Of a stretch of 64,000 nt of DNA, positions 1,051 through 63,905 are shown piece by piece; position 1 is the first letter of the stretch; every line of letters begins with the position of its first letter. This stretch comes from a virus. Taxonomy: Duplodnaviria; Caudoviricetes. The position numbers and the translations under genes were made by a program. The stretch covers positions 101,724 to 165,723 of the IMG/VR virus record IMGVR_UViG_3300013383_000014; one strand, 5' to 3'. Below the pieces are notes generated by a model, which saw only the letters and a program-made list of their open reading frames with translations, had not been told where the DNA came from and ran no database searches.

Positions 1051-1731
1051 ATGACAGTTAATGATATTTCTTCTGCAATTTTAAATGATTTGTTTTCGGG
1101 AAATTTTGTTACCCCAAACAATCAAAGTCTGCTTTCTGTAGACCAATTGGAAGATGAAGTTATAGAAGAAAGGGCTGCTGTTATAAAGGAAATGTTCTTA
1201 AAAGGTATTTTAAATAAAAATGATGTTCTGTTCGCACTTAATTGTGTACCAGTAGATTGCAAAGACCAAAATAAATGTAAGTGTATGGGCTTGGGTGTTG
1301 TTAAAAATGCAAAACATTTTGAAATCCCGCAACTCATGCCAGGACTTGGTTCAGAATCTCTCGTTTATGTAGGTAGTACCGATAGATCAAATTCTTATAA
1401 AATCTTTTATAACAAAGAAGCTCTTGATTATTATAAATATTTTCAGAAGTACTCTCGAAGCAAAAAGAACAAACCGTTCGTTTATATAGAACGTACCCCA
1501 AATGAAAATGGAATGTTTGATGGCTGAATTTTCGACGCGCCAATGGTTGAAAATATAGCAGTTATTGGTGTGTTTCAAAACCCTAGACAATTAGAGGCGT
1601 ACAATTGTTGTAGCCAGAGCGATTACCTTGAAATGGGAGTACTTAGTAGTGAAATTAAAAATCGCATTTTAAATAAGAAGATTAGATTATATAGAAGCGC
1701 TTCTCCAAGTGCTTCACAAACAGTTGGTTAG
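1051..1731 (+). CDS. Conserved crAss tail/structural protein (226 aa, 1 TGA)
   Basis: Track ORFs 1051-1527 and 1543-1731 are in frame across TGA 1525-1527 (DG-W-IFDAP); ends TAG. Confidence 0.75.
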
Positions 1732-1734
1732 TAT

Positions 1735-2430
1735 ATGGGGAAATTAGTTAATATAAAAGCGGCATATCAGCTCTGTAACTCGTTATTCGGGGTAGACCCA
1801 GATCCAGATACGTTTGAAGATGTCGCATTGGTAGGGTGGGAAAAAATTGGAAACAAACATACTAGATTATATAGATATAAAGCAAATACGAAAGATAAGG
1901 AACTAGTTCTTCCTTGTAACGTAGAAATAATTGAGTCGGTAACAATACCGGCTCTGAGCGCACAAATAACGAGTAATAAAACAGATATAATAGATCTTGA
2001 AAATGTGCGCGTAGAAGGTTATATAGAGGCCTTCAAACAAAATAATGATCCTTTTTATACTAGCGGTAGTTACGTTAAATATAAAGAAGGAGATGGAGTG
2101 TTATATTTCTCCAGAGATTATGATGATATAACTGTGTTATATCACGGAATTTTGGCAGATGAAGATGATGGTCTGCCACTTGTTAATGAGAAAGAATTAC
2201 GTGCAATTGCAGCATTTGTTGCTTGGAGAGAGACTTACAAAGATGCAATTCGAAGAAAAGACAGAAATGCTTTTACAATTGCACAATATATAGAGGCAGA
2301 GTGGTACAGGGCCTGTAACGCAGCACGAGTAAAAGACCACTTGAATCAAAACGATATGAATGCCATTTTAGATGTTAAAACTCGTTGAGACAGAAAGAGT
2401 TACGGCAAATCATATAAAAGTGTTTTATAA
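1735..2430 (+). CDS. Tail tubular/ring protein (P22 gp4-like; 231 aa)
   Basis: Position in module; YHGILADEDDGLP motif; TGA 2386-2388 read through gives KTR-W-DRKSYGKSYK, ending TAA that overlaps the next ATG. Confidence 0.75.
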
Positions 2431-3425
2431 TGATTGGATATATTTATAAAATTACAAATGTTTTTAATAATAAAAGCTATATAGGACAAACCGGGCGTAG
2501 TGACGTTAATTTAAGATGAAAAGAACATAAAAGAAAATATAAAAATAAAAACAATAGTGATTACAACAGCAAATTTTATAGGGCATTACGAAAATATGGG
2601 CTAGAAAACTTTTTGTGGAAAATAGTAAAAATAGTAAATGCTCCTAGTGATGAAGAATTAAGAAAATTACTAAATCGATGAGAAAAATACTATATTAAAA
2701 AATATGACACTTTTGTAAACGGATACAATCTTACAAAGGGTGGTGATGGATGTTGTGTTAACTATCTTCGAATTTTAATGTTTGATGAGACCGGGAAGCT
2801 ATTAAAAACGTTTGAGTCTTCAAAAAGTGCTGCCGAGATACTCGGTGTAACTAAGGGGAGTATCCAGTCCTGTTGTTCAAGAAATAAATTTTATACAAAA
2901 ATAGATGATAATAGGGTGATTTTTAGATATGAAAATGACACAATAACCGAGGAGGATTTTAAGAACTTAAAAAGAATTAATTATGATAAGAAAATTTTAA
3001 TGTTTAATATGTCTGGAGTACTATTGAGAACTTTTAATTCTGCAAAAGAAATTTCAAGTGTTTTTAAAATTGCACCTAAAAGAATAACTGCGAATTGTAG
3101 ATCGCAATCATCTTTTGTTTTAATAAATGATACCAGATATATTTTTAAATATAAAGGTGATACTATAACGCAAAACGACTTGAAGCGGGCGCACAAAATT
3201 AAAAGTGATCCAAAAATAAAGGTTACTGCTGTAGATAGTGTAACAGATGAAATTTTAGGGAAGTTTGACACATTGTCAGAAGCCGGGAGACGTTTTAATA
3301 CACACGGTCATAATATTTCTGAAGTGTTATCTGGAAAAAGAAAAACAGCTGGGAAATTTAATGGGCATCCTATTGGTTGAATTAAAACTAGTCAGTATAA
3401 TGAAATATCCGGTAGTTGATCATAG
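2430..3425 (+). CDS. GIY-YIG homing endonuclease with NUMOD1-type repeats (331 aa, 4 TGA)
   Basis: MIGYIYKITN..KSYIGQT..R-W-KEH..E..YI..GYNLTKGG; TGA at 2517, 2679, 3378 and 3417; three C-terminal G.LL.TF.S..(E)A repeats; ends TAG. Confidence 0.9.
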
Positions 3426-4401
3426 TTTTTATGCTAGAGACCTTTTTGAAACTTTTGATATAAAAGGAAAGGTTCATTTGAAGCAAAAGATAGTTAAAAA
3501 GAAATATGGAGTAGATAGATTGCAATATCTGTGTGTTAGTGTGTTTATATATTGTTTTTATATAACACTTTTGGATATTATCGAAAATAATGCTAACTTT
3601 ACGTTGCCTTTATATAGGGGGAAACGCGCCCAGATATATTGCAAGGAATATGTTGGTGAAGAATTACAAGAAATGCGAAAATGTGGAGCATTTGCAAGCC
3701 AAGATATGTTGGAACAAAATTTTATTGGATATGGGCTAGTTTATATGTGCGATTATACTAGCGCACCAATGGTGAAGTCAATACATATTAATGATGGCCT
3801 TAAAAAAAAATTGCGCGATAGAGCAATAAAAGGACCAAAACCAGTGAAACCAACAAATCTAGACGATTACTTACCTTTTGTGTACAAGGAGTTCGAGGAT
3901 CTTCCGGAAAAGACAATTAGACAAATCTGTGAGCATGCATATAGAACTATGTTTCGACTGCAAGGAATGGGTTGCGATATTTGTTTAAGTAATAAAAGAC
4001 TTTTTCCGTTTGTTGCATATTTTGGAAGGTTTTTCATTAGTGATGAAAAATTTTACGAATATCACAATAAAAAAATGGCAGATAAAATAAGAATACGATA
4101 TAACTTGGAAAGAAAAACAAAACCATGAACAGGATATTATTATTTTGGTCTTACTGAGGATGAATATAATGAACTGTTTGCCGATAAGAAGGGTAGGTTG
4201 AAGAAAAAGATTGTCTTTCCAAAAATATGTTTATATAAAGTAAAAGAAGAAGCGGCATTGTTTAGAAAAGCCAAATATTTCTTTCGTACTCCGTGGCAGG
4301 AAGAGAAGGGTTGAAAAATCTGATTGGAAAATTACGAGACAAGAAATGTTGAACTTATCGGAGAACGTGGTGCTGATAAAAAGGTACATTTTAAAGAATA
4401 A
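3400..4401 (+). CDS. crAss IHF/HU-like protein, apparently two units fused (333 aa)
   Basis: ATG 3400; TGA 4126 gives KP-W-TGYYYF; two further TGA; TAA 4399-4401; sits between the tail tubular and muzzle genes, where crAss IHF-like genes lie. Confidence 0.55.
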
Positions 4402-4403
4402 AT

Positions 4404-7400: not shown

Positions 7401-7676
7401 TATGAAAGACGTTTTGGAGAAGAAGAATACTTGTTTTCAAGAGAGTTTCTAAATAAAACATCTCTTTGATTTATAGACAAAAGTGTTAATGTACTAAAAA
7501 AACATTATGCTTTTATAGAAAGTTTTTTTAATAAAGACCTTGAATATTCAAACTATCCTTGAGCTCATACCGGACATTATACTTGGGGAGACTTCGGCGA
7601 CGGCTATACATCAGTATGTGTTTTTGGTAGAGCTAGACAGGATTTGGATGAAATACAATTAACAGAGTTCGATTAA
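4404..7676 (+). CDS. Tail stabilisation/muzzle-related protein, N-terminal type (1090 aa)
   Basis: NSFSDGMVKDINP..TYNGNE..LQNDMGN..YGGILYIVSYNP N-terminus; fragments 4404/4875/5244/7071 share a frame and are separated only by TGA; TAA overlaps the next ATG. Confidence 0.75.
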
Positions 7677-11935: not shown

Positions 11936-11936
11936 T

Positions 11937-16788: not shown

Positions 16789-19700
16789 ATGTCACAAGTA
16801 ATATATAGAAGTCAAATAAAGAAATACCAGAATGCTCCAGGCCCTCTGCCTAAAAATGAAACAGAGGAACAAAAAAAGAAGCGACTGGAAGAAGAGGCAA
16901 AAAAGAAGGCTGCCGCTAGTGAAGAAAACAAAACTCAAGTTACTCCGGCCCAGTCTAGTACAACTGACACAAAAACAGGAGCCGCACCTAGTACAACAAC
17001 TACAGGAACATCTAGCGCTAAGTCCGTTGTAACAACCACTCCTGCTACTAAGCCTGCATCTACTACAAGTGCAGCTCCAGCAGATCCTGCTGAATCGGCA
17101 TTGGTAAACAATGGCTTTTTTGAGTTAAATGGAGTTCGTGTTACCGGCGCTAGAGCAATACAGGAAATAAATAAAAGGTTTAGGAACTCTTCTAATAAAA
17201 GAGCACAAACTGATGCATTAAATGCAATAAATAATGGCGGCGGAATTCGTGTTGCAGGAAATAAAGTTTGGTTTTTTGATAAAGATGGGAACGATATCAC
17301 GCATTCAATTATAACTCCAAAAACACTTCCAAAAAGTCGTTTCGCCAGAAATTGGGCAGCTACTTTTTCTACACAAAAAGACGCAGATCTTGATAGTTAT
17401 AATACTCTTATATCTGGTGAAATTACGCCAGATGCTCCTGAAAAAGAACTCGGCCCAGTAAAGAAATCACTCTTACGTGGAAGCGGGTGGTTTAGCTATG
17501 ATAAAGACAAAGATGGAAAATCGATATATAATAAAGGAGCGCAGTCCAATCAACAAATGTACGACACAATGCGTGACGCTGTTGGTGCGATATGAGCTGA
17601 TGATTTTAATAAAGACAATTATAATGATGTCGATAAATGAAATTTTGACTACATCCGTGCATTAAAAGATAATTTTAATGGAACCGAGGGTTTTAATAAT
17701 TATCTGATTGATCTGGAAAATAGACTGGCTGCTGGGGAAGAAGTAAAGGATAATGACAAACGAATTCTTAAATTGTTTGGATATGAGCCAGATGCAACAG
17801 GTACAGAATCTGGAAGTAGTTCTGGCACAGGTAGCACTACAAAAGAATACTGGACTCCGGATGCTTTTAAAGGAAATGCCGATGCTTATAAAAAGGCTGG
17901 GCTTACTTTTACAAAAGGTGAAAATGGTGAATACACTCTTACTGGAGGGATTTTTGGTAATGGAGATGTAGATTGGGCACTTTTTGGAAATAATCTTTTT
18001 AAAGGCACACAATACGAAAATGGATTTTATCACAAAGGTCGTTTATACACTAGGGATGAAGTTGCTGCAGATGATGCATTAGGTACGATATTTCGTCCAT
18101 TCTTAACTGCTAGTGCAAATGGGGCAAATTGAAATACTACTTACGACAATATGAACGCCTCTGGAGTTCGTTTTCAGGGTGATAGAATTTGAGCAGGAAA
18201 GGATAATAAGTACTATGGTGGTTATACCATGTACGACCCAGAAAGCGTTTATGCAAGAGAATATGATAGTGAGTTTAGAAAAAAAAACGGATTGGCAGGA
18301 AAGGGAGTAAAAGACATAACTGGTGAATATAACTTAGGCGCAGGAAAGAAATTATTCGCTTATACGGATGGGCAAACAAATTATGGTGAGCCAATTATAC
18401 GTTATATGATGTTTGATAATGGTGCTGTTACAAAGCTGAACAACCTAGACGCGTACGCTAGTGCTAGAAAACAAGCAGCCTATCAAACTGCTACACCAAT
18501 TGATTGAGGTGAAATAGATGCGAATGGTTATGCTCCTTACAAAGAGTTTACTACACAAGCTCCTGGAAAAGCAAGGCAAAATAACGCATTGATGTATAAT
18601 CCAACTACTGGAAGATATAGCATTATAACAAATTATGATCCGAATGCGCAAGGAGCCAAAGGATATGATATAGATCAGAGTTGGAAAGATTATATACTCG
18701 AAAATATTAAAAATGGAATCTGAAATATTGATTTTAATGGGCAATTGAGTCAGTTTGGAAAGCGCAGGGTAGATCCACAAACAAGAGCAAACAATCCAGA
18801 ATCGCGTGGCCGGGAGGCTATTTCTGGACTAGCGTTTAAAAAACAAGGAGGAAAAATTGATTGAAATAGGCTCCAAAAGCTCCAAACTGGAGGGGCTTTC
18901 GCTGGTCCGGTGGCTGAGGCAAAAATTACAAAAACTAGTGATCTTAAACACGATATTTCCAAAGCGCACACTATGGATGAGGGTCTTACAGAATCTGAAA
19001 AACTTAGGATTGGCGCTGCTATCACTGACTTAGGAGGAACAATCGTATCTCTTATCCCGGGCGCCTCTACTGCCGGCGCAGTAACTGGAGCTCTTGCTAC
19101 AACAGCTCAATTACGGGCCGATCGATTGGCACAAAAAGAGGGTCGTGACGTTGGGAATTACTGGGGTCGTGCAATTGCAAATTATGCGATGGACGCACTT
19201 ACAGCAGCTCCTATTGCTGGTGCCGCTGCAAAGATTTTCAAAGTTGGAAAAGGACTCCAAAAGATTGCTCCGTTACTTGGAAAAGCAATGCGTTTCGCCG
19301 CTCCTGTTCTTGGCGCTGCTGGTCTTGCAAACGCACAAGCAGCTCTTGATAAAATCGTTAAGGGAGAGTGAAGCAAACTTACCTCCAATGATCTTACTGA
19401 TCTTTTTAATGGACTTTCTGCTGCTACTGGTGGTGGAGCCGTTGTTAGACAGGGAATTAAAGACGCTCGTGCAATTACAAATCTTGCAGATACAGCACAA
19501 ACTGCTGCAAAAGATGCAAAGGCAATTAAAAATGGAAAGGTAGGAGACGTCCTTTTTGATAAAAAGACTGGGGAAATACTTGAAACTCTTGATAAAACAA
19601 AAACAAAGAAAGAGGCTCTTAGCAAAATCAAGGACATGGTAAAAGAGCAAAATAGTGCTCTTGATGGAGAAGCTCTTGATAAAGCAGCACAGGATGTTTT

Positions 19701-40800: not shown

Positions 40801-41041
40801 AAATGGGGAAATGTTGCTTGATGCCTTTAATGTATTGTTTAATAATAAGAATATTACGTTAAGGGACATTGTTAATAGTAACACAGAGTATCTTTTGGAG
40901 AATTTTGCTAAAAATATATTTAGTTTTACAAATGAAATAAATGAGGATTTTATTAAAAAAGATCAGCGTATTTCTGGTATTAAAACTAGATTATTTAATA
41001 GTACAAACTCAAATTGGAATTTAAAACAGGATTGTAAATAA
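31832..41041 (+). CDS. Virion RNA polymerase with C-terminal zincin-like domain (3069 aa)
   Basis: RIPTQ..GSDYDIDK catalytic DxDxD (37598-37612); QDG and DNAK motifs; HELSH..EE (40565-40579); 12 in-frame TGA by my count and no TAA/TAG. Confidence 0.92.
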
Positions 41042-44000: not shown

Positions 44001-45636
44001 TAATCGCTCAAATGTTAGTAGAAAAGTACTCCCAATTATTACTGGCCTTAAAATGGGTCTTGAATATCGAGACGCGCATGGATCTTTTGAAAATAAAGGA
44101 AAGCGCCAGGATATGGCAAACATTAGAAAACGTTTTGACCAAATTGTAAAAAGTAAACTTTATGGAGAATCGATTGTCCCAGAGAAAGCACAAGGCTTGC
44201 TAAAGTTTATTAACTTAGTTAAATCGTTTTTTACAACAATGACCCTTTCTTTAAATAGTAGATCTTTCTTACGAGAAACTTTATCTGGTATTTACAATGG
44301 AGTTAGCCGAGCTGGAGTAAAAATGTACCCAGGAATTGACGAAAAACACTATATTGAAGGACTAACTTACGTTATGCAAGAATGCCCTAAAAATTTTAGT
44401 GGAGTTAGTCTTTTACAACAACTAAATGCGGTTTATGGAATGGCAAACCAGTCGCTTAACCAGTTGCAGGGATATAAAGTTAATTGGGCGCATATTAGCC
44501 ATTGGGGAAAAGACACAGCATTTTTGACGGCCTCTTCCCCAGACTTCTTGCATAGAATGGCATTACTTATTGCCAAAATGAAAAGTGACGGTTGTTTTGA
44601 TGCTTATTCGCTTGATGAAAATGGATTGTTAAAATACGACTTTAAAAAGGATAGGCGATTTGAACATTTCGTTAATGGAGAAACTACAAATGAGAATTAT
44701 TTAAAAGAAAAGTCATTATATTTAACAATGATCGATGAGTTCAATAAAACCGGCTTTAAAAATCCAGACGGAACACAACTAAATGCAGAGAATATGGATG
44801 CATTACCACAGGCATATACACGAATTGAGGGGCAGAGTATTAAAAACTTTGCAGATTTATTATATGGCCATTATGATGATGAATCGAAGTCGTTGTTATG
44901 TGACACTTTCTTAGGTTCTATTTTCTTGCAGTACAAGACATTTTTAACAGCAAAAGTTGAGCAGCTCACAATGACGAAAGGAGTTTATAATACTGCCCAA
45001 TTAAAACAACAGTTTGATAAAGACGGAAATCCATTATATGTTAAATATTACTGGGACGAAGATAACAAACCACATAAAGACACAATTTTACAAAGCGAAT
45101 ATGAAGCACTTTCTGATGAAGAAAAAAAGGCATGTAGGTTGTTGTTTGCTTATGAAGGTTCTCCAATGCAAGGTATTTTCCAGGAGTCCATGAATGTTTA
45201 TAAAACATTATTAACAATGAATCCAGAAAAGATTAAAAAGGTATGGAGTGACCAAACAACGAGAGCAATGTTTATGTTGCAAATACATGATTTGTGGTTC
45301 TTAGGGTTGATGATATTCCTAGTCACTTATGTGTTTGGTACAATGGAAGACTTGGATGATCCACTCAACCAGAAGGCTGTATATAGTGCAATGCGTAAAG
45401 CTGGACCAGTTGAAAGTCTTGCATATAATGTACTTGCTGGATCTATGGCAGATTTTTCGTTGCCAAATATAATTAACTCGTTTACAGATAAGCCGCCAGT
45501 AGTATCTGCCCTCTCAAAATTTGCTACAACTTCAATGAATTTAATTACCGGTGATTCGTCCGTTACAAATTGATTAACACGAAATATTGGTGCAATTAGA
45601 GATCTTGAGGGACTTACAAATATGATTGATGAATAA
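41041..45636 (+). CDS. Giant putative virion protein with N-terminal RecB-type PD-(D/E)XK nuclease domain (1531 aa)
   Basis: GTEVH..E..GVIDLL..DYK..QLELY motif series; one frame through TGA; hydrophobic helix near the C-terminus; TAA 45634-45636. Confidence 0.85.
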
Positions 45637-49135: not shown

Positions 49136-50160
49136 TATTCAAAAGTTATTTTAAAAGTTGATTTAAAATCAGAATCGTTAATTATTTGATTCACTGCTGT
49201 TTGAGTAGATTTAGTCCACTTTAGTACGAAATCTTGGAACATTTCTTCGCAACATTTAGCATCATCATCACTGTGCTTTTTCTGTTTTGTGTAATTTGAA
49301 ATACAACCAATTGAATAAAAATTAGTTTGCCTTATATCGGTGTTTTTGCGAAATTGTTTTGTAGCAGTTGATTGCCACTCAGGAAGCATTTTAATACGAT
49401 TATAATTAAGTCCCAATAACATATTAACAGAAGCCTGCATTGGTTCCATGTTATAATTGCTCAACAATCTAATGCCTAGACCAATACTGTCTTTATCAGA
49501 AGACTCAATAAGTGCCTTTATCTGGTGGAAAATATTATAATTGATTGCATCAAGACCTCCAGTAATAAGTTTGTCTAATTGTTGATCAGTTATAATATTG
49601 GTTGTTTTACCATTTAATACATCAATTAGCAGATCTGGAGTACTTGTGTGAAATACATTATAATTATAACTATTTATAATTTCAGAAGAAAATAGTGCAT
49701 CTTTATATTTCTTGATAAAATTATCAAGATTTGCATATTCTTTTCTGTATTTATTCCAATAATTTCCAGAAAAATAGGCATGACTTTGAAATAAGTAATA
49801 TTTATCCTCAGTTTCAATTATTTTGCTAAAAAATTGATTTTCTATAGCAAAATCCTTAATAACTATAAAATCAGCTTTTTCTTTTTTAATGCATCTTTTA
49901 TAGCTAGTTTCTGCCAATTTAAAACGTGGAAATTTTGATGACTTATCAAACAAAAACACAGCGCCATCTTTCGGTGACACTGTGTTTATTTTTTCATTAA
50001 TTTTTGCTGTTAATTCCGTGAGTGTAGCGTCTGATGCTATTAATTTATTGCAATTATATCTTCAAGTAATACTACGATGACTAGGATCATGAACAACTGC
50101 GTCAAAATCACAATAACTATAAAAAGTATAAACTGGTTTGTTTAATAAAAAAATATCCAT
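49135..50160 (-). CDS. Hypothetical protein, paralog A (341 aa)
   Basis: ATG 50160 overlaps the ATPase TAA; TGA 50062-50064 read through. Confidence 0.8.
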
Positions 50161-51386
50161 TACAATATTTTATTTCTAATTTTAGCATTTAACAAAAGTT
50201 TGTTAGTTCTTGCTTTATATTTGCCTACGAGTTGTTTAATAATATCAAACAAGAAATCCTCAGAAAAGAGCATTTTCTTATCTGGGTCATCATTTGTGTC
50301 AATAAGATCAATAAGACGCTGTTCTACAACATCTGTTTTTGCTCCTTTCTGCTCGAAATAATACATGGAGTAGTTAAGAAGTCTGGTGTGTAAAATACTA
50401 GCTACCAATGGTTTATAATTACCGTTGTCATCATATACACATTTCTCGATTTTAGGCGCAACTTTCTTCCAGTCTCCTGTTAAGAGTTCTTCTGGAGAAA
50501 TAAGTTTATCAAGTTTATTTGCAATAAAATTGGTGAAAAGAGTTCCAATTGTGTTGTCTTTATCATCTAGGAATGCACCAGATGCAATTTGCAAAATAAG
50601 AGCAAGACTTTTTGGGTCTTCCCAATTTTCAATTCCCGAAATAGTGTTTGCAAACATCGTGTAGTTTCTAGCATTAACTGGATGTCTATGTTGTGCGTTT
50701 TCTTTCATTATTTCGCTTGAGTAGGCAAGCATAAAATTTTGAGCTCGATCATCAAGTCTGGCGTTTTCTGCATATCTCGCCCAACTATTAACATCAAATT
50801 TTACATTAAAACGCATAAATCTTGTCGCGAAAGCCTCATCATAGCCGTTTGTATCATAATTTCCATCATCTGGATTTTCTGTTAAAATAATGGTAGAGTT
50901 TGGCGGTAATTTCCATGAAATATACTCCTGACGACAGATAATTTCCATAACTGCCTGCATAATAGCTTGGCTTGTACGGTTATAATCATCTAACAAAAGT
51001 ATCGTCGGTTTATTAAGATCCAATCCTTCAATCCACGCTGGCACAGCATAAGACATCCTGGTTTCTGGGGTAATTGTCCATCCGTTTGCCGTATAAGCGT
51101 CGATAAGTTTTGCACTGATCCAATCGCACTCATCACCACGGCAAACGTGATATTCCTGATATGGCCAGCCAACAATTTCTGACGGGTCTGTCAATTGACT
51201 GAGATTCAAACGTATATAATTAGAGTCAATTTCTTGTGCTATTTGTTCACAAACTTGACTTTTACCTATCCCGGCAGCTCCACATAACGAAATTGAAACA
51301 GGAGATTGTCCTTTTTCTTGGAGTGCTCTATTATTCTTAATTATATAACGCAAAACGTCTTTTGCTTCATCTAGTGTTAATTCCAT
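50160..51386 (-). CDS. MoxR-like AAA+ ATPase
   Basis: GAAGIGKS, LLLDDYNR, LTENP, D.AF.TRF, NARNY; adjacent to a VWA gene. Confidence 0.9.
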   Translation of the reverse strand: MELTLDEAKDVLRYIIKNNRALQEKGQSPVSISLCGAAGIGKSQVCEQIAQEIDSNYIRLNLSQLTDPSEIVGWPYQEYHVCRGDECDWISAKLIDAYTANGWTITPETRMSYAVPAWIEGLDLNKPTILLLDDYNRTSQAIMQAVMEIICRQEYISWKLPPNSTIILTENPDDGNYDTNGYDEAFATRFMRFNVKFDVNSWARYAENARLDDRAQNFMLAYSSEIMKENAQHRHPVNARNYTMFANTISGIENWEDPKSLALILQIASGAFLDDKDNTIGTLFTNFIANKLDKLISPEELLTGDWKKVAPKIEKCVYDDNGNYKPLVASILHTRLLNYSMYYFEQKGAKTDVVEQRLIDLIDTNDDPDKKMLFSEDFLFDIIKQLVGKYKARTNKLLLNAKIRNKIL

Positions 51387-51387
51387 C

Positions 51388-52560
51388 TTATTTATTTTCT
51401 TTTGGTATTTCTATTACAACGCCTGGGTATTCTTGATCTGCGTGATTGGACGTTAAAACCCAGACAACATTACGTCCGTTTAAGTTATTAATATCAACAA
51501 AACCATCAGTGAACATTACGAGTGTAGAGAAATCTTTTTTATGCTCATCTTTGTACGCCCACAACTCCTCGAATGAAGTTCCTCCACGACCATTTATTTC
51601 ACCGTCAAAATGACCTTTATATTCGTATATTCTATTGATCCGTGTATCAATTTCGGCTATTGTTACTTTTACTCCACTTTTCCACAAGTGGTTTATTTCG
51701 GAAAAGAAATCTAGCAATTCATTGTTAGACACACTGCCTGATGTATCTACTCCAACTAGTACACTAGGCTTTCTTTTCATTTTAATGCCCTTAGCATCAG
51801 GAAATCTCCTACTAGGGCGCATTTTAGTTAAAAGTATTTCAGATGTTATCATATTACCGATAACTCTTCTGAAATATGCTTTCCAATTAAAAATCTGCGG
51901 CTTTACTACAAAAAGACTATCTATATATTCTTTAAACTGTCCCGGTATGTTTCCACACTGTTTCATCACTTGCTCTGCTGTGTTCTTTGCAAGTGTATCA
52001 ATTTGGTTTTTAACTAGTTGTTTTTCTGCCTCTGAAAGATCGTCTGCTTTTTTCCAAGTAGAATGATCGTCGATTGTTTTTTGCTTTCCTTTTCCTTTTT
52101 TACTTTTATTTCCTCTAGACCCATTGCCAATACCACTTTTGTCATTCTCTCCATCATCTTCTGGTTCTGGGAGATTTTCATAATAAAATTTGGAACCCAT
52201 ATTATTTTGGAAACCAAACCTAGCAGGCCATACATAAGGGTCTTTTTGTAGTACTGGGATATTTCCGTTCACTTCGCAATCACAACTCAAGTTAAACCTT
52301 TGTTTATCTGTGAAGTCCTTTCCCATAAGTAGGTGATTATAAAGCAGATGGGAAATTTCGTGCATTAGTACTCCAGTTTGTTCTTCATCGGAAAGTCCAT
52401 TCCAAAATTCCTCGTTAATCACCAATTCACAATTTATGCCATTTATTCCAACGGCTGCCGTAGGTACTTCATCGGTGAAATATCTATTCAACCCAAGCAA
52501 AAACAACCCATAAAAAGGTTCCTTAACGATGAGGGATTTTACACATTTGTCAAGTGTCAT
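51388..52560 (-). CDS. Metallopeptidase-VWA protein (DUF2201-like)
   Basis: HEISH; MIDAS DTSGS; GRGGT; FTDG. Confidence 0.9.
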   Translation of the reverse strand: MTLDKCVKSLIVKEPFYGLFLLGLNRYFTDEVPTAAVGINGINCELVINEEFWNGLSDEEQTGVLMHEISHLLYNHLLMGKDFTDKQRFNLSCDCEVNGNIPVLQKDPYVWPARFGFQNNMGSKFYYENLPEPEDDGENDKSGIGNGSRGNKSKKGKGKQKTIDDHSTWKKADDLSEAEKQLVKNQIDTLAKNTAEQVMKQCGNIPGQFKEYIDSLFVVKPQIFNWKAYFRRVIGNMITSEILLTKMRPSRRFPDAKGIKMKRKPSVLVGVDTSGSVSNNELLDFFSEINHLWKSGVKVTIAEIDTRINRIYEYKGHFDGEINGRGGTSFEELWAYKDEHKKDFSTLVMFTDGFVDINNLNGRNVVWVLTSNHADQEYPGVVIEIPKENK

Positions 52561-52565
52561 TTTTA

Positions 52566-52766
52566 TTAATCTTTCTTCTCAGACTCTACTATTTGTGCTT
52601 CTTCTGTAAAATCTGGTACTATATTCATATATTTAAAAAAGTGATTGGCAACCGCATTAACACCGCCATTTGCAGCAAAATATGCCTGTAACAAAACGTC
52701 CCGGGTTGCATTCTCCGGGACGTTCAACTCGTTATCAAAACGACTATATGTAACTATATATTTCAT
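52566..52766 (-). CDS. Hypothetical protein
   Basis: Intact ORF coupled to thyX by TAATG. Confidence 0.65.
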   Translation of the reverse strand: MKYIVTYSRFDNELNVPENATRDVLLQAYFAANGGVNAVANHFFKYMNIVPDFTEEAQIVESEKKD

Positions 52767-53953
52767 TATATCAGTTCTTTTGCTTCAAACTGGTTCTTTA
52801 AGTCAATTGCCAATTTTTGTATATCTGGGTGCGCTCCCTTCGCTGTTCTAAGTTCAAAAAAGTGCATCCAATCAGAAATAAAACCGGTATATATAACTTT
52901 TGTTTGTAGATCAAGTGGCAATATACCACGTGCTTCCTGTGGCTTCATTTTATGCCCCTCCTCTGTAGTAGTGAGGTACATATAATCCTTTTCTATATTT
53001 GCAAGGCAATCCCAATAAGCAGCAACACTACGATCTTTGCAAGTTAAATAACGTATAAGACTATTTCCTTTTGCGTTTGCAAGATCTTCATCTCTAAGCC
53101 CATCGGGTCCAGCATATTCTGCTAGTTCATCACGTAATTTATATGCCCACTCAGGTACAATAAAAGTCAGTTCGTTTCCAAACTTGTCTTTCGAGAAATT
53201 GCAGTAGCGGGAGCTCATTTCTACTATGCCTAGAGTTCTTGAACGATTCCACTCCCTGGAAATCCCTATGCTACAATTAGTTACAACAGTAGCTCGTTTT
53301 TCATGGAAATCACTAGGCTCATCCAGATAACAGAGATCTTCAAGCCAGTTATTTTCAATCAAAACTCGCATATTTGTAGTTATGCAATAAAAAGTAGTTG
53401 GACCCTGTTTCTTAACAATTTCTCTCCAATATAGTGGTGCATAGTTATATACACCAAAAGTCTTTATAGATACTCTAGAGTAAGGATTTTCGAGATATTT
53501 CTCTGCAATTGTTTGCCTTTTATCGTACTTTCCAAAAGGAATAGCAATTGTAAGATAAACACAACCAAACTCAGTTGGAGTAAGATGTCCTGCATTTTTA
53601 AGTTTTTCCACAAACTTTTCTGCCGTAACATTCTCGTAATAAGGGCAGGTTTCAAGGGTTTCCTCCTCTGCACAACTAGTAAGTTCTGGATAAAAAACAA
53701 CTAGTGCATTTGGGATCGACACATAATAACAATGGTCGAAAAAGGCACCTTGTTTTATAACTACTTGTGGATCGTCTTTTAGTTTGTTAATCAACTCCTG
53801 CGTATTCGCGTTTTTAAGGTCATCTGGAACGCAAAAATATCTTGTCCCAGTACTCTGATAACTATAGCGTCCGGCCCTCTCTATGTCCTCGTAAATGCCC
53901 TTTAACGAGGTATGTGTTTCGACTAGGGAAACACTACTATCCACAAACTTCAT
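52766..53953 (-). CDS. thyX: FAD-dependent thymidylate synthase (divergent)
   Basis: RSR-x7-SRYC, PQEARGILP, W.HFF.LR, AHPD; likely start MKFVDS. Confidence 0.85.
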   Translation of the reverse strand: MKFVDSSVSLVETHTSLKGIYEDIERAGRYSYQSTGTRYFCVPDDLKNANTQELINKLKDDPQVVIKQGAFFDHCYYVSIPNALVVFYPELTSCAEEETLETCPYYENVTAEKFVEKLKNAGHLTPTEFGCVYLTIAIPFGKYDKRQTIAEKYLENPYSRVSIKTFGVYNYAPLYWREIVKKQGPTTFYCITTNMRVLIENNWLEDLCYLDEPSDFHEKRATVVTNCSIGISREWNRSRTLGIVEMSSRYCNFSKDKFGNELTFIVPEWAYKLRDELAEYAGPDGLRDEDLANAKGNSLIRYLTCKDRSVAAYWDCLANIEKDYMYLTTTEEGHKMKPQEARGILPLDLQTKVIYTGFISDWMHFFELRTAKGAHPDIQKLAIDLKNQFEAKELI

Positions 53954-54101
53954 CGTTAAAAATAAGTGAGTGTGAGTATCCATCTTCGCGTGGGTACATT
54001 GCGTCGAGCGTATTCATCGCCTTGAACTTATCTTCGGCCTCTATTGTTAAAATATGCTCTATTCCAGTTCTTTTAACTCGAAATTGAAATTTACTTTTCA
54101 T
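53937..54101 (-). CDS. Hypothetical protein (54 aa, below track cutoff)
   Basis: [20 protein letters not shown] fills the gap between thioredoxin and thyX. Confidence 0.55.
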   Translation of the reverse strand: MKSKFQFRVKRTGIEHILTIEAEDKFKAMNTLDAMYPREDGYSHSLIFNDEVCG

Positions 54102-54351
54102 TGAGTTCTTTTATCTTGTTATAAAATGTTTCTAGAGAAATATTTCCAACGGTTCTACCGAGTTCTTCGTCTTTCTCGTTAAGAAAGAGTAGTACCGGTA
54201 TATTGCGTATTTTATATTTCTCGCAGATTTCTTCATTTTCATCTACGTCCAATTCTTCGATTGGAACGTCTGTTACTTGCTTAAGCATCTCAGAAAGTGC
54301 TCTACAAGGTGCGCACCACTCTGCACCTAGCTTCAGAACTTTATTTACCAT
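54091..54351 (-). CDS. trxA: Thioredoxin
   Basis: WCAPC, DVDEN, IRNIP. Confidence 0.92.
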
Positions 54352-55574
54352 GCGTATAATTTATATTGATTTGCAAAATAGTTAACTTCGTTTTTTATAT
54401 TTTGAGGGTTTTCTCCAGAAAGAGCCCTATTTATAAAACGAGCAATTAACTCCATATCTTTCATTCCCCGAGTAGTTATTGCAGGAGTACCCAATCTGAG
54501 ACCAGATGTCTTAAAAGGTGATCTAGTGTCTCCTGGAATCATATTTTTATTAACTGTTATATCACATTGTCCAAGTATTGTTTCAGCGTCTTTCCCAGTC
54601 ATATCAGGATATTTTGTGCGCAGATCAATCAGAAAACTGTGATTGTCGGTCCCTCCTGTAATTATGTGAAAACCAAAATCTTGCAGTGATTGCGCTAGAT
54701 TTTTTGCATTTTTAACTACTTGTTTTTGGTATTCAACAAACTCTGGAGAAAGTGCTTCTCCGAAACAAACGGCTTTTGCGGCAATTGTGTTTTCGAGCGG
54801 ACCACCTTGATTCCCAGGAAAAACAGACGAGTTAATTCGTTTGCTCATAAGTTTTCCTTCATATTCGAAATCTTCTCGCATCAAAATAATTCCACCACGA
54901 GGGCCTCGTAGAGTCTTGTGTGTTGTGGAGGTAACTATATCAGCATATTTGCACGGATTTATCAAAAGGCCAGCAGCAATTAAGCCAGCAGTATGTGCCA
55001 TATCAAACATCAATATTGCTTCAGATTGTTTTTTGGCTTCCAAAAGCGCTTCGTAACCCCACTCTCGTGAGTAAGCAGATGCACCAGCAATAATCATTTT
55101 TGGCTTTATTTTGCGTGCTTTATCAATAAGTTCATCATAATCGACAATCCCATCTTTCGTAGAACCGTAGGTTTCAACGTTATAATACTTTCCTATGTAA
55201 CTAACTGGAGATGAATGCGTTAGATGCCCACCACAATTAAGATCTAGTGCAAGTACAGTATCTCCAGGATTTAGTACAGCTTCAGTAACTGCTCTATTTG
55301 CTTGGCTACCAGAGTGTGGTTGCACATTTGCGTAAGAACAATTAAAAAGTTTGCATGCTCTATCTATTGCTAATTGCTCGATTTGGTCTATAACTCCGCA
55401 ACCGCCATAATATCTATGCCCAGGATATCCCTCAGCATATTTATTTGTGCAGACAGATCCTAGTGCTTCATATATATCATCTGAAACATAATTTTCAGAG
55501 GCAATTAATTCTATGCCATTTAATTGCCTCCGAGTTTCGTCTTCTATAAGATTTTCTATTAATTTATCCTTCAT
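54345..55574 (-). CDS. glyA: Serine hydroxymethyltransferase
   Basis: [56 protein letters not shown]. Confidence 0.98.
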
Positions 55575-56166: not shown

Positions 56167-56452
56167 CCTTGTGTATATTCATATCTCCATAATAAAAACA
56201 ACCGCTTATAACATAGCCAGTATATTTATTATCTTTCCATATATAACTCCAAAAATCAAGCTCCCATCCATTTATTTCAAGAGCACCACAATTTGCATCT
56301 TCTTTTGATTCGGAAATTGTATAACCCAGTTCTTCAAGCGCTTCTCGTAGAGTAGCAAACGCAACATAATTAAGATTGCACTCTACAAGGCCATTTTCTT
56401 TAAAATATTCTACAATTTCTTCTCTTGTAGGGGAGCCTTTTATTTCTTCCAT
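56159..56452 (-). CDS. Hypothetical protein
   Basis: Intact ORF, coupled on both sides. Confidence 0.7.
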   Translation of the reverse strand: MEEIKGSPTREEIVEYFKENGLVECNLNYVAFATLREALEELGYTISESKEDANCGALEINGWELDFWSYIWKDNKYTGYVISGCFYYGDMNIHKDE

Positions 56453-57492: not shown

Positions 57493-57517
57493 ATTAAATA
57501 TACTTTGAATTGAAATT

Positions 57518-57549
57518 CAAATATAGCAATATTTTAAATAAAACGCAAA
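57518..57549 (-). promoter_or_regulatory. Bacteroidetes promoter for the LAGLIDADG gene
   Basis: Reverse complement TTTG-N20-TATATTTG. Confidence 0.75.
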
Positions 57550-60780: not shown

Positions 60781-60907
60781 AATTACAAACTGCTCTTTCT
60801 TCAGATTTTCCGGAATCATATCCTTTCAGATATGCCTCATCTATCAAGTTTTCTACGGTTTGTTTTTGTGCTGGAGTCAAACTACGAAAAAGTTCTTTCT
60901 TAGACAT
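60764..60907 (-). CDS. Hypothetical protein (47 aa)
   Basis: MSKKELFRSL..EAYLKGY..FW-TAA fills the gap. Confidence 0.5.
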   Translation of the reverse strand: MSKKELFRSLTPAQKQTVENLIDEAYLKGYDSGKSEERAVCNYERFW

Positions 60908-60917
60908 ATAAAATATA

Positions 60918-61418
60918 TTAAAATTCAGTTGCCAAAAGTTGTTTTACAAGAGCAAGCTTCTTAGGCTCCTGCATATAACGCACATACAATACCCAGAGAA
61001 GTTGTTTGTTTGTTATACCAGGATAATACACATCACCAATCTTTTCCTCAAAATCGATCGGCACTGCATCGGTACCAAGGATTGCATTTCCAGCATGCTT
61101 GGATAATTCAAAATAGCGATTTCCTACTGAATAAACATCTTTTGCAACCATTTGTGGCTCAGGATATTCCTCAGATGTATAAGTTATAGCATTTTCCTTT
61201 GGTTCGGGCTCTTCTGGCTTTACTACATGCACATAGCCGTTACAAGACTCAGCATCGTCTCTCTTTTCAATCTTCTTTTCGGCTTTCTTTTGTTCATCGG
61301 CCTTCTTATATGCATCTTTTACATAATCTTTACATTCGTCTTTTAGAGCCTTAATATCCTCTTTAGACAATCCAAGCACATTAAAAAGCTCGGACAAAAT
61401 ATCATTTTCTGTGTACAT
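60918..61418 (-). CDS. Hypothetical protein
   Basis: Intact ORF. Confidence 0.7.
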   Translation of the reverse strand: MYTENDILSELFNVLGLSKEDIKALKDECKDYVKDAYKKADEQKKAEKKIEKRDDAESCNGYVHVVKPEEPEPKENAITYTSEEYPEPQMVAKDVYSVGNRYFELSKHAGNAILGTDAVPIDFEEKIGDVYYPGITNKQLLWVLYVRYMQEPKKLALVKQLLATEF

Positions 61419-61426
61419 ATTTTATT

Positions 61427-61870
61427 CTATTTACCTGTTGATCCAAAACCACCTTCTCCACGATCTGTTGCACGGAGTTCTGTTACTTCGCTAAACTCAA
61501 TTGCACCTGTTATATCAAGATGAATCTGTGCAATGCGATCACCTACATTATATGGCTCCCCATTAGGATTTACTTTATAAAAGCAGCACATAATTTCTCC
61601 AACGTACGATTTGTCGATGGTACCCAACGAGTTACAGAGTTGGAGTCCGGTTTTATATATGCTACTCCTAGGACGAACGGTGAAACCAGCAATTACATCT
61701 CCATCACCTTTATCATCTATTTGTAACGCAAGTCCAGTACCATATCTGAAAACTCCAGGAGCAATCTCTTCTTTACTAGTGGCAACAAGATCATATGCAA
61801 AATCATCAGCATGTGCTTTCGTTGGCACAACTGCCTCTGGTACAAGCTTTTTAAAATTAACTTTAATCAT
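61427..61870 (-). CDS. dut: Trimeric dUTPase
   Basis: YDL, PRSS, GTID.SY.GEI, RIAQ, RGEGGFGSTG; start MIKVNF. Confidence 0.97.
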   Translation of the reverse strand: MIKVNFKKLVPEAVVPTKAHADDFAYDLVATSKEEIAPGVFRYGTGLALQIDDKGDGDVIAGFTVRPRSSIYKTGLQLCNSLGTIDKSYVGEIMCCFYKVNPNGEPYNVGDRIAQIHLDITGAIEFSEVTELRATDRGEGGFGSTGK

Positions 61871-62063
61871 TTTTAATATATAATTGACAACAGCATTTAT
61901 CCCTAAGTCTATAACTTTCGCAAGGACAATGCAGATCTCCATCATTTTCTTGGTGCGAACACGGGCACTCTCCGTTATTTTTCTCTATGCGGGTAAAAAT
62001 CGCATTTACTAGTTTATCGTTTGGGTTCAGAGACCAACCAGACTTTCTAAGAATTGTTATCAT
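61863..62063 (-). CDS. Ferredoxin-thioredoxin reductase catalytic-subunit-like protein
   Basis: LNPN..CPC..CPC..CCCQLY cysteine pattern. Confidence 0.8.
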   Translation of the reverse strand: MITILRKSGWSLNPNDKLVNAIFTRIEKNNGECPCSHQENDGDLHCPCESYRLRDKCCCQLYIKND

Positions 62064-62544
62064 GTTTCCAAAATTGTGATGTTTCGTCTCTCCAACCGGG
62101 CCCAATCGTGTAGTTACTATAAAATATACTATACTCGTAAAATCGTTGATTGGTAGTTGGACTAGTAAGAGGCCCTTTTTCTTCTATATAAGGTCCGAGT
62201 TTTATATAATCCCAGTTATATAAGTTGATTTCTTTCGAGAGTTCCTGTTTTCCAGAATACCAACCTGTTTTAACACCAAAAAATCGTAATTTAACGAATC
62301 TAGCAAGTTCGTCTATATATGCTGGGTCTTGGTCACCACCCATGAAACCAACACAAGTAATACCACTATTCGCATTTATAAGACGTTCTAGCTCTTCTTT
62401 TGTTAGTTCTATGCCAATATCATCAGCCAAGTAAGACGAGTGGCAATTTTTACACCCTTGTTTACAACCTGATATATTAATACAAAGTGCTATTTCCTTA
62501 GGAAACTCTCTAAGGCCGATCAACGTATCTACATATTTCAACAT
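62047..62544 (-). CDS. nrdG: Anaerobic ribonucleotide reductase activating protein
   Basis: SGCKQGCKNCHS radical-SAM motif, FMGGD, IKLGPY, TTNQRFY. Confidence 0.9.
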   Translation of the reverse strand: MLKYVDTLIGLREFPKEIALCINISGCKQGCKNCHSSYLADDIGIELTKEELERLINANSGITCVGFMGGDQDPAYIDELARFVKLRFFGVKTGWYSGKQELSKEINLYNWDYIKLGPYIEEKGPLTSPTTNQRFYEYSIFYSNYTIGPGWRDETSQFWKHDNNS

Positions 62545-63226
62545 ATTTTCTGAGATGATTAATTGTTGTTTCTGGTAATATAAATTTTTTTAACAGAATT
62601 TCAAGATATTCTCTATCGAGTTCCATTTTAAAATTTACAGCATCTGTGAATATTTTAAAATTTTTGTTAATCTTTTTATTAACTCGTCTAGAACGAACAC
62701 AATACGTATTATGCTTTGTTTTATAAATACCGTGCCCGAGCGTACTTAGAAATGTATTTATAGTTTTAGGGATCAAAATACATGTTTTTTCTGAATAACA
62801 CTTTGGGTAGATGCCCTCAATTTCGCAGATACAATCTTTATCTATATCACAACTATATTCCAATTTGTGTTCTGTGAATCACCTTTTAAAATTTGAATAA
62901 TATTTAAAATACTCAGAAACATATACGCCTTTTGCACCGTAGTTGGAATAACCATCTATATCTTTATAATAGCATCTCCGCTCTATATTCTTTCATATAA
63001 AATATATTGAAGTATCCACATTTCTGGCATCACAAACAAAACCAAATGCGTCTGGTTGATCAATGTTCTTAATTAGTCCGCTTTTTATTTCGTCTAATCG
63101 TTGAACATACTTCCGGGTGTATCCATCAAAATGACAATCATATAAATATCTATTTCTAACCTTTGTAGTGGATTTACTGTCTATAATTAATCAATCGCCA
63201 CAATTTTGTAGATATTTTTTTACCAT
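62510..63226 (-). CDS. HNH-related phage endonuclease (238 aa, 3 TGA)
   Basis: Y..W.....RCY...Y..YG.KGV.V..NF..W..DKD..YS..TC..IP..IN; TGA at 63191, 62993 and 62879. Confidence 0.8.
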
Positions 63227-63339
63227 AACAACCAATTAAGCCACAACACATAATAATCTTTAAAAGCCTTTGCGTCATCTGGAAGTACATCAAACAGATA
63301 ATATGCCCAGATAGCTTTTTTATTCCATCCAGCTCCCAT
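63220..63339 (-). CDS. Possible 39-aa Trp-rich peptide
   Basis: MGAGWNKK..WLNWLLW-TAA fills the gap. Confidence 0.35.
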   Translation of the reverse strand: MGAGWNKKAIWAYYLFDVLPDDAKAFKDYYVLWLNWLLW

Positions 63340-63727
63340 CGTCAATACTCTTTTTAATCTCTTCTTTAAGAGACTTATACACTTGCCTAGAAACGTACAA
63401 GTAATCTTTATAATCTTGTTCAGAAAGTTCAAAAGGTCGAAAACAAACATGCTGGAGCTCATAACAAGGTTCTTTTGAGTCATATTTAAATCCAGCAACA
63501 GACATGCACTGTTCTGGGTTTTTAAAACAACCTGGGTGGATAGTAACATTAGGATAATTTTTCATATGTGCACACCCATTATCGTCCCAATCATATTCGT
63601 CCTCATGTCCATAATAAGGATTAGGACTCCAAACAACAATATCTACATCTTTATTATCTGGTGGCGGATCAAACAGATACGTAGGTTTCCTAGACTCAAT
63701 ATTTCCAACTCTAATATACTTGTTCAT
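63320..63727 (-). CDS. Hypothetical protein
   Basis: Intact ORF. Confidence 0.7.
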   Translation of the reverse strand: MNKYIRVGNIESRKPTYLFDPPPDNKDVDIVVWSPNPYYGHEDEYDWDDNGCAHMKNYPNVTIHPGCFKNPEQCMSVAGFKYDSKEPCYELQHVCFRPFELSEQDYKDYLYVSRQVYKSLKEEIKKSIDDGSWME

Positions 63728-63905
63728 CGTAATCTCCTACTTCAAATTGTTTGTAAAAATCATCGACTTCCATTCACGCGATTTCATCTGGCTGGAAATC
63801 GTTTTTATTAAACAAAAAGTCTTCCACTTGATCACTAGTGTCAAATGGAAGACCTCTCATATACAATATTTTACCTAAATTATAATCTAAAACGACTATA
63901 TTCAT
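63711..63905 (-). CDS. Hypothetical protein (64 aa)
   Basis: ATG 63905; TGA 63774 read through to TAG 63711. Confidence 0.6.

Follow-up and report, generated by a model that had tools for sequence, protein, structure and literature searches.

TGA-to-tryptophan recoding is known from earlier work on crAss-like phages, a group for which it is amply documented (Yutin et al. 2021, PMC7886860; Babkin et al. 2025, PMC12386605), and stop-codon recoding in such phages was also reported by Borges et al. (bioRxiv 10.1101/2021.08.26.457843). Phages of the Zeta group and Lera (PMC7886860, PMC12386605) combine a genome of the 145-192 kb class and gut-type relatives with crAss ring and muzzle proteins, a PolA-type DNA polymerase, homing-endonuclease ORFs that split conserved genes, in-frame TGA codons that are restored by translation table 4, and a phage tRNA-Sup(TCA); approximately 18% of the ORFs of Lera, mostly structural, are recoded (PMC12386605). 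The system of Borges et al. [quoted passage not shown] In NCBI code 4 (Mollicutes, some endosymbionts) UGA likewise specifies tryptophan through a tRNA-Trp with anticodon UCA, TGA and TGG being synonymous, but in those organisms RF2 has been lost from the cell and the reassignment extends to the entire organism.

The stretch of DNA analysed in the current study (the window) makes up the right-hand 64 kb of a 165,723-bp crAss-like gut phage genome from IMG/VR, the record of which gives a completeness of approximately 94%. This phage shares the above features of the Zeta group and of the phages of Borges et al., and differs from each system in particular respects. Unlike the mostly structural set of Lera, its recoded ORFs account for approximately 50% of the total and include those for a helicase, primase, DnaB, RNase H and ligase, and it carries only five tRNA genes, none of which is an amber suppressor. 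In contrast to Jade phages it possesses neither a phage RF1 nor a TrpRS, while, unlike in the phages of Borges et al., replication genes are also recoded and the tRNA lies precisely where TGA-free genes meet TGA-using ones, a position conserved in relatives. The difference from code 4 is that here a virus would impose the change on some genes in a host that probably keeps RF2, and that a few early genes seem to retain TGA as a stop.

Results

Crass-specific virion proteins (PF24228, PF25731 and PF25729; ring and muzzle) were found in the phage, and its TerL is 24-26% identical to those of classified Crassvirales. The genome size of 165.7 kb lies inside the 145-192 kb class of the Zeta group, and conserved genes occur in pieces (TerL in three, the portal in two and a 475-aa homologue in three) with LAGLIDADG or GIY-YIG ORFs nearby. 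Judged by these sequence features, the phage resembles the Zeta group of crAss-like phages. The nearest GenBank phage shows 35-43% identity, a search of a phage collection with the muzzle protein gave no Lera-like match, and tblastn of a presumed capsid ORF (genome positions 73605-75158) against phages gave no match. The window contains giant ORFs (2794, 3069 and 1531 aa), and D-x-D-x-D strings occur, one of them at residue 1923 in the 3069-aa ORF, as string matches that do not demonstrate RNAP homology.

The initial annotation had described ORF fragments that are separated only by TGA, and reading TGA as a sense codon did restore full-length ORFs: stop-to-stop ORFs of 100 aa or longer then covered 96% of the window instead of 88% and the longest grew from 851 to 3071 aa, while in a control with TAG as sense the longest ORF was not increased. 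The coding-density comparison which that annotation had proposed, performed on the whole contig with a non-overlapping ORF set, gave a coverage of 75.5% under code 11 versus 90.9% with TGA as sense, and frames were interrupted by TGA alone, never by TAA or TAG. Approximately 20 ORFs with non-coding codon usage were removed from the first greedy code-4 set before statistics were computed, which left 40 ORFs in the window (Table 1), 24 of them carrying 95 in-frame TGA codons alongside a total of 136 TGG. All reconstructed genes end in TAA (31) or TAG (nine), as had been claimed; this follows from the way the ORFs were constructed, yet it is informative because the standard-code relative MT835470.1 ends 28% of its ORFs in TGA. 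Across the genome, 152 of 155 ORFs never require TGA as a stop and 226 in-frame TGA sites are present; the tryptophan content is 1.28% when TGA is counted and 0.81% when it is not, compared with 1.11% in MT835470.1. In-frame TGA codons are evenly placed along gene length (KS p = 0.39), while their use per gene is strongly over-dispersed (chi-square p = 5e-11), the plus-strand block at 1051-45636 having TGA in 16 of 17 genes (79 TGA, 75 TGG).

Table 1. Predicted genes of the window and their in-frame TGA codons (window coordinates).
Feature	Coordinates	Strand	In-frame TGA and remarks
ORF, 226 aa	1051..1731	+	1, stop TAG; no family match
crAss tail ring protein 1-like, 231 aa	1735..2430	+	1; PF24228, E = 4e-7
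GIY-YIG + NUMOD homing endonuclease, 331 aa	2430..3425	+	4; TGA 2517 = W of I-TevI RWKRH
ORF, 346 aa	3361..4401	+	3
Virion-block protein, 1090 aa	4404..7676	+	9
crAss muzzle protein, 1419 aa	7676..11935	+	9; PF25731, E = 4e-29
ORF, 470 aa	11937..13349	+	3; start ATG-TGA (M-W)
DUF192 protein, 201 aa	13336..13941	+	1 (13492) = conserved W of WM(K/R)N motif
ORF, 113 aa	13948..14289	+	1
HTH_36/DnaD-like protein, 243 aa	14544..15275	+	1
Zinc-finger (DUF4379) protein, 314 aa	15472..16416	+	2
1581-aa protein	16789..21534	+	12; 9 full-length homologues, W at most TGA columns
630-aa protein	21538..23430	+	2
Giant 2794-aa protein, AAA_30/helicase-like domain	23432..31816	+	9; crAss transcription/cargo block
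Giant 3069-aa protein	31832..41041	+	12
1531-aa protein, weak PD-(D/E)XK match	41041..45636	+	9, first = codon 10
RepL-like protein, 153 aa	46074..46535	-	1
Two ORFs, 345 and 341 aa	48098..50160	-	1 each
AAA ATPase, metallopeptidase/VWA, ThyX, 86-aa ORF (54091-54351), SHMT	50160..55574	-	0 (24 TGG combined)
ORF, 208 aa	55564..56190	-	2, first = codon 4
LAGLIDADG + NUMOD homing endonuclease, 346 aa	56452..57492	-	3 (0 TGG)
RNA ligase-like protein, 453 aa	57550..58911	-	0 (9 TGG)
ATP-dependent DNA ligase, 417 aa	59587..60840	-	4
166-aa ORF, dUTPase, radical-SAM activase-like protein	60918..62544	-	0
HNH endonuclease	62510..63235	-	3 (0 TGG); family by PHROG only

The identity of the amino acid inserted at TGA was deduced from three independent comparisons, with a standard-code relative, of TGA/TGG interchange and with solved structures, and each of them supports the reading of UGA as tryptophan. 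MT835470.1 has 94% ORF coverage under code 11, a tRNA was looked for in it and none was found, and one of its full-length ORFs is 35% identical to the muzzle protein. In a blastp comparison with an X placed at each phage TGA codon, the 56 TGA columns (49 non-gap, seven gaps) held W 17 times, Y 10 times, F six times, C once and G never, against a background W frequency of 1.15%; the tabulation of homologous residues that had been suggested thus yielded W in 17 and Y or F in 16 of 49 columns, and not once glycine, the residue that would have spoken against tryptophan. The 106 TGG control columns held W 45, F 11 and Y nine times and thus behave like the TGA columns. In this distant relative W occupies only roughly a third of TGA columns, in agreement with the TGG controls (46%), although alignment noise is possible. 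In two recoded relatives (L001 and L004; 58-63% amino acid identity), phage TGA codons lie opposite TGG 11-13 times and opposite TGA 12-17 times, TGG being the commonest non-TGA codon, while phage TGG codons are aligned to TGA 13-14 times; TGA positions are conserved or exchanged with TGG in independent assemblies. Structures of RNase HI show W in at least one structure at three of four TGA columns and those of XPB at two of four, and in five standard-code TerLs the residues opposite TGA are mainly Y, W or F, with no instance of G. The TGA columns of DNA ligase were uninformative in this regard, as PDB ligases have Y or I rather than W there.

Four TGA codons had been singled out as standing at family-typical tryptophan positions, and all four were found in frame at precisely the coordinates given (13492 and 2517 on the plus strand, 57292 and 62879 on the minus strand). 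The DUF192 codon corresponds to W in 3pjy and 3m7a, and the GIY-YIG codon to the W of the R-W-K-R-H motif of I-TevI. In 2dch, however, the residue opposite the LAGLIDADG codon is the initial L of the motif, which does not confirm a family tryptophan there. A PDB search with the HNH ORF gave no match.

A tRNA with anticodon UCA, which had been predicted to lie outside the window, was recovered by ARAGORN on the full genome at positions 28249-28322 of the minus strand, approximately 73 kb upstream of the window. It folds into a cloverleaf in which the acceptor stem has 7 bp and the variable loop is short, matches the Rfam tRNA model with 53.8 bits, and has a CUUCAAA anticodon loop, discriminator G73 and the A1-U72 pair of E. 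coli trpT; the 'SeC' label given by ARAGORN derives from the anticodon. Two relatives (82% and 64% amino acid identity), reached through searches for homologous proteins and their encoding contigs, carry tRNA(UCA) immediately downstream of the same phosphoesterase gene. In these relatives G73 and the CUUCAAA loop are conserved and the anticodon arm closely resembles its counterpart in E. coli trpT, while the acceptor stem varies (A1-U72 in the phage, G1-C72 and C1-G72 in the relatives). Within the tRNA only G73 and the anticodon loop speak for tryptophan identity, and charging with tryptophan is thus suggested by the protein alignments and not by the tRNA itself. An exact anticodon-arm search in IMG/VR gave three matches attributable to chance, none of them located in a tRNA, and a phosphoesterase-based search there found no related loci. 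Neither an RF-1 domain or release factor homologue nor a class-Ib synthetase (TrpRS) homologue was found in the phage genome; of the earlier proposal that the phage supplies such a tRNA and/or suppresses RF2, the first part was borne out, while the second is speculative, a search for a phage gene acting on RF2 having found none.

The use of TGA is uneven along the genome. A leftward block of approximately 18 kb upstream of the tRNA (approximately 28-46 kb) contains 10 TGA versus 80 TGG, and three of these 10 belong to ATGA stop/start overlaps in which the gene that follows is a real one, ClpP being among them; three genes in this block appear to end at TGA, and the early block probably still uses TGA as a stop. 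With this block nearly free of TGA and TGA present in about half of the genes, the reassignment holds but its description as genome-wide was an overstatement. Within one direction of transcription, the tRNA marks the point at which TGA-free genes give way to genes that use TGA, and this position is kept in the relatives, in which TGA/TGG counts are 4/63 and 1/10 on the upstream side of the tRNA compared with 7/19 and 15/24 on its downstream side. A temporal model is not clean, because PolA (TGA/TGG 0/11), a tail-fibre protein (0/9) and a 517-aa ORF (73605-75158; 0/4, no family match) are TGA-free amid TGA-rich genes, and two ORFs within the 'early' block hold internal TGA codons (five and two).

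The base following sense TGA is A in 48-50% of cases, versus 25-34% for TGG and 35% for all codons; this bias persists at positions where the relative has W (Fisher p = 0.02), and the trend is alike in relatives. It fits the known ease with which UGA followed by A is decoded by tRNA-Trp (Engelberg-Kulka 1981, as cited in PMC5289835). Sequence context was rejected as a means of separating stop-TGA from sense-TGA, as two of the three ATGA stops are also followed by A.

Discussion

Phage SHMT is nearest to Bacteroidales MAGs, the loci of which end ORFs in TGA, and we infer a Bacteroidales host with the standard code. In such a host, the phage tRNA(UCA) would presumably be charged by host TrpRS and compete with host RF2 at UGA. 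Recoding is partial and ordered along the genome: TGA read-through is required by genes 3' of the tRNA and throughout the rightward block of virion and giant-protein genes (window 1051-45636). Genes readable by the unmodified host may be made first, while TGA-bearing genes (virion, giant cargo/RNAP-like proteins, several replication enzymes and homing endonucleases) would yield full-length products only after the suppressor tRNA builds up. Taken as a whole, this explanation is held with high confidence.

It is very unlikely that the host itself uses code 4, as Mollicutes and some symbionts do, and that the phage merely follows it. Of 155 ORFs, 152 do without a TGA stop and tRNA(UCA) could be a mere supplementary tRNA, but a code-4 host would leave the avoidance of sense TGA upstream of the tRNA (10 TGA versus 80 TGG), the three ATGA overlaps and the strong over-dispersion between genes unaccounted for; moreover, the nearest GenBank relative has a TGA stop in 28% of its ORFs, TerL and the virion proteins are of crAss type, the closest matches of SHMT are from Bacteroidales, in which these loci have ORFs that end in TGA, and such phages are placed on standard-code hosts (bioRxiv 10.1101/2021.08.26.457843).

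Two further readings are already contradicted by the sequence comparisons and appear most improbable. Translation of TGA as glycine (code 25; Gracilibacteria, Absconditabacteria and their phages) or as cysteine or selenocysteine would give the same ORF structure as code 4, and ARAGORN did label the tRNA 'SeC' owing to its anticodon; yet glycine occupies none and cysteine one of 49 aligned columns of the standard-code relative, the five TerLs show no glycine, TGG is the commonest non-TGA codon in the recoded relatives, the 7-bp acceptor and short variable loop are unlike the extended acceptor and long variable arm of tRNA-Sec, and 226 sites exceed plausible SECIS-dependent insertion. Genuine stops, whether in pseudogenes, assembly or sequencing artefacts or fragments, or with leaky read-through that needs no dedicated decoder, would agree with the fragmentation of genes under code 11 and with the natural leakiness of UGA followed by A. 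They are difficult to reconcile with interruptions that are TGA only and never TAA or TAG, with homology and coding signal that run on past the TGAs, with sites kept or swapped with TGG in independent assemblies, with a dedicated tRNA(UCA) conserved in relatives, or with a 3069-aa ORF whose 12 TGA codons would allow essentially zero product by leakiness.

Within the preferred reading of UGA as tryptophan, a more elaborate proposal is that of a positionally programmed two-code genome, with tRNA(UCA) at the boundary, an early operon that is free of sense TGA but terminates at TGA, downstream and late genes gated by TGA, and +4A tuning of dosage and timing; we regard this as a tentative possibility, and a rather doubtful one. 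Under it, the base that follows would govern whether TGA or TGG is used, and +4A would favour the tRNA over RF2, so that read-through efficiency would be set codon by codon. The temporal switch is already published; what would be new is the tuning by +4A and the conserved location of the tRNA at the boundary.

Annotation with table 11 loses approximately 15% of the genome and splits the large virion proteins into dozens of fragments, and table 4 is advisable except for a few early genes. The results leave the established picture of phage recoding unchanged, and the genome represents a rather extreme example of it, with approximately half of the genes, replication enzymes included, being affected. 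The +4A bias bears on the competition between suppressor tRNA and RF2 in a standard-code host, while the conserved siting of the suppressor tRNA, with TGA-free genes on one side and TGA-using genes on the other, provides comparative support for the published model of a temporal code switch.

Reading TGA as a sense codon

The four TGA codons highlighted in the initial annotation, in DUF192 (window position 13492), GIY-YIG (2517), LAGLIDADG (57292) and HNH (62879) genes, were all located at exactly these coordinates. With TGA read as sense, stop-to-stop ORFs cover 96% of the window instead of 88%, and the longest of them grows from 851 aa to 3071 aa, while a control in which TAG was read as sense yielded no comparable gain in the window. 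The coding-density comparison that had been proposed was performed on a non-overlapping ORF set of the whole genome, where density rose from 75.5% under table 11 to 90.9% once TGA was counted as sense. Following removal of approximately 20 ORFs with non-coding codon usage, 155 ORFs were retained in the genome, 77 of which carry in-frame TGA (226 TGA versus 390 TGG codons), and 40 in the window, 24 of which do so (95 versus 136). Each of the 40 window ORFs ends in TAA or TAG, as had been claimed. The position of TGA along genes is uniform (KS p = 0.39); very early TGA codons are included in the table.

Features of the phage genome and of the window, with their coordinates
Feature	Coordinates	Strand	Basis or observation
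crAss tail ring protein 1	window 1735-2430		Pfam
crAss muzzle protein	window 7676-11935		Pfam
470-aa ORF	window 11937-11942 (first two codons)		TGA at codon 2 (ATG-TGA)
3069-aa ORF	window 31832-41041	+	S-D-Y-D-I-D-K string at residue ~1923
1531-aa ORF	window 41041-41085 (start of the ORF)		TGA at codon 10
SHMT	window 54345-55574	minus	Pfam E = 5e-149; no TGA
208-aa ORF	window 56179-56181 (TGA codon)		TGA at codon 4
DNA ligase	window 60826-60828 (TGA codon)		TGA at codon 5
PolA (family A DNA polymerase)	genome 17697-19718	minus	0/11 Trp codons TGA; adjacent helicase 6/7
TGA-poor stretch	genome 21-46 kb		GroEL-like chaperonin, ClpP protease, AAA ATPase, PcfJ and DUF2828/DUF7788 (TROVE/Ro60-like) protein near tRNA cluster
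tRNA(UCA)	genome 28249-28322	minus	53.8 bits versus Rfam tRNA
Block upstream of tRNA(UCA)	genome 28.3-46.5 kb	minus	10 TGA versus 80 TGG
Split conserved genes	genome 64.7-71.7 kb and 95.6-98.1 kb (outside window)		TerL in 3 ORFs, portal in 2, 475-aa protein in 3; DnaB and NrdD partial

Identity of the TGA-encoded residue

Since the nearest full-length homologues in a large protein database are themselves TGA-recoded, a standard-code comparator was sought. The human-gut phage MT835470.1 (117 kb) shows 94% ORF coverage under table 11, contains a 2970-aa ORF without recoding and terminates 28% of its ORFs in TGA; no tRNA genes were found in it. All phage ORFs, in which each TGA was translated as X, were compared by blastp with the ORFs of MT835470.1. 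Among the 56 aligned TGA columns, W was the most frequent residue (17), along with Y (10), F (6), T (5) and 7 gaps, and Gly was encountered in none of them; in the control set of 106 TGG columns, W was aligned 45 times, F 11 times and Y 9 times, against a background of 1.15% W. In two recoded relatives (58-63% aa identity) TGA of the phage pairs with TGG 11-13 times and with TGA 12-17 times, while 13-14 of its TGG codons align to TGA in the relatives, which is the behaviour of synonymous codons.

Solved structures were also consulted. The tryptophan assigned to the TGA codon in the DUF192 gene is present in 3pjy and 3m7a and that in the GIY-YIG gene in the I-TevI structure 1mk0, but the proposed tryptophan of the LAGLIDADG motif was not borne out, as its column falls on the first L of the motif instead. 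RNase HI structures have W at three of four TGA columns in at least one structure and archaeal XPB structures at two of four, while in TerL of five standard-code phages the TGA columns chiefly hold Y, W or F. The Trp content of the phage is 1.28% with TGA counted and 0.81% without it, as compared to 1.11% in MT835470.1. The columns aligned to this relative, the TGA/TGG interchange, the structures and the Trp content support the assignment of TGA to tryptophan. Decoding as Gly (code 25), Cys or Sec was excluded.

A candidate decoding tRNA

No tRNA was found in the window. The whole genome encodes five tRNAs, one of which is the UCA-anticodon tRNA that the initial annotation had predicted to lie outside the window. 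It folds into a normal cloverleaf with a short variable loop and the anticodon loop CUUCAAA, and shares A1-U72 and G73 with the E. coli tRNA-Trp gene trpT. Two related contigs, reached through homologues of the adjoining phosphoesterase (82% and 64% aa identity), both have a tRNA(UCA) directly downstream of the phosphoesterase gene; acceptor stems vary among the three tRNAs, G73 and the anticodon loop are kept, and the anticodon arms of the two relatives are close to that of trpT. The phage tRNA has an unusual T-loop (UUGGAUU versus UUCGAAU) and a D-loop lacking the usual GG, which may represent a swapped 19:56 tertiary pair. As no RF-domain protein or TrpRS-class synthetase was found to be encoded in the phage genome, we infer that tRNA(UCA) would be charged by the host TrpRS and would compete with host RF2.

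Uneven TGA usage along the genome

The recoding had been described as genome-wide, but it is not uniform, as the TGA share of Trp codons varies strongly between genes (chi-square p = 5e-11). In the window, TGA accounts for 79 of 154 Trp codons in the plus-strand virion/giant-protein block and for 16 of 77 in the minus-strand nucleotide-metabolism block, where it is found chiefly in the DNA ligase and in the endonucleases of the LAGLIDADG and HNH types. The TGA-free PolA could reflect recent acquisition or early expression; PolA/PolB switching is known in crAss-like phages.

In the block upstream of tRNA(UCA), the remaining four tRNAs are interspersed with genes for PcfJ, ClpP, the phosphoesterase and a DUF2828/TROVE-like protein. 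Three of its ten TGA codons are the sole TGA in their gene, with a TAA or TAG following after 2-12 codons, and each overlaps, as ATGA, the start codon of a genuine gene further downstream; at these three sites TGA is probably still a terminator. Clear recoding starts with genes located downstream of tRNA(UCA). In the two tRNA-bearing relatives, upstream TGA/TGG counts are 4/63 and 1/10, as compared to 7/19 and 15/24 downstream of the tRNA, and the four TGA codons of RNase H occupy identical positions in all three phages.

In the published model, early genes are readable by the host while recoded genes await the suppressor (PMC7886860; bioRxiv 10.1101/2021.08.26.457843). The observed TGA distribution fits this model, albeit imperfectly, since some structural genes lack TGA and two early-block ORFs contain several.

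Nucleotide context of TGA

The base following sense TGA is A in 48-50% of cases, as compared to 25-34% after TGG and 35% after all codons, and this trend was repeated in two relatives, while it was absent for TGG in the standard-code phage MT835470.1 (38%). The bias was kept at columns with W in the standard-code relative, where A follows in 11/25 versus 6/37 cases (Fisher p = 0.02). After true stops (TAA, TAG), the next base is T in 58% of cases. According to Engelberg-Kulka 1981 (cited in PMC5289835), tRNA-Trp in E. coli reads UGA most readily when the next base is A. Stop and sense TGA are not distinguishable by context alone, because A also comes after two of the three ATGA stops.

Phage group and host

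The source contig is a single IMG/VR virus record of 165,723 bp (35% G+C, linear as assembled) with an estimated completeness of ~94% (CheckV), and the window corresponds to its bases 101,724-165,723. Samples that contain this phage or relatives of it include ENA ERZ28613902 and ERZ28436091. Besides the crAss proteins, family matches in the window comprise DUF192, GIY-YIG and LAGLIDADG homing endonucleases, DNA ligase, ThyX, SHMT, dUTPase and dNMP kinase; SHMT lies beside ThyX, dUTPase and dNMP kinase in a thymidylate-synthesis module. A TerL fragment shares 24-26% identity with TerL of classified Crassvirales and 43% with that of the unannotated MT835470.1. Judged from sequence features, namely the size of its genome, its PolA polymerase and the large number of conserved genes in pieces, the phage would fit the Zeta group that Yutin et al. 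2021 (PMC7886860) described among crAss-like phages. LAGLIDADG or GIY-YIG ORFs are located between or close to the pieces of genes that are split relative to the standard-code phage, a pattern suggestive of group I introns or inteins such as those reported from Zeta crAss-like phages. The S-D-Y-D-I-D-K string is a candidate for the DxDxD motif of a crAss-type virion RNA polymerase.

The phage SHMT is nearest to Bacteroidales MAGs (57-63% identity), in whose loci many ORFs end in TGA, which is consistent with, although not proof of, a standard-code Bacteroidales host.

Relation to known recoded phages

Yutin et al. 2021 (PMC7886860) reported TGA-to-Trp recoding with suppressor tRNAs for crAss-like phages, above all for those of the Zeta group, which are large and rich in introns, and a detailed account exists for phage Lera (PMC12386605). 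The temporal-regulation model and the preferential recoding of homing endonucleases are covered by Borges et al. (bioRxiv 10.1101/2021.08.26.457843). Based on the findings of this analysis, we conclude that the reassignment of TGA to tryptophan in this phage is correct and well supported, and that it goes slightly beyond the published accounts consulted in the extent of recoding (~50% of ORFs, replication genes included), in the conserved position of tRNA(UCA) at the boundary and in the bias towards A after sense TGA.
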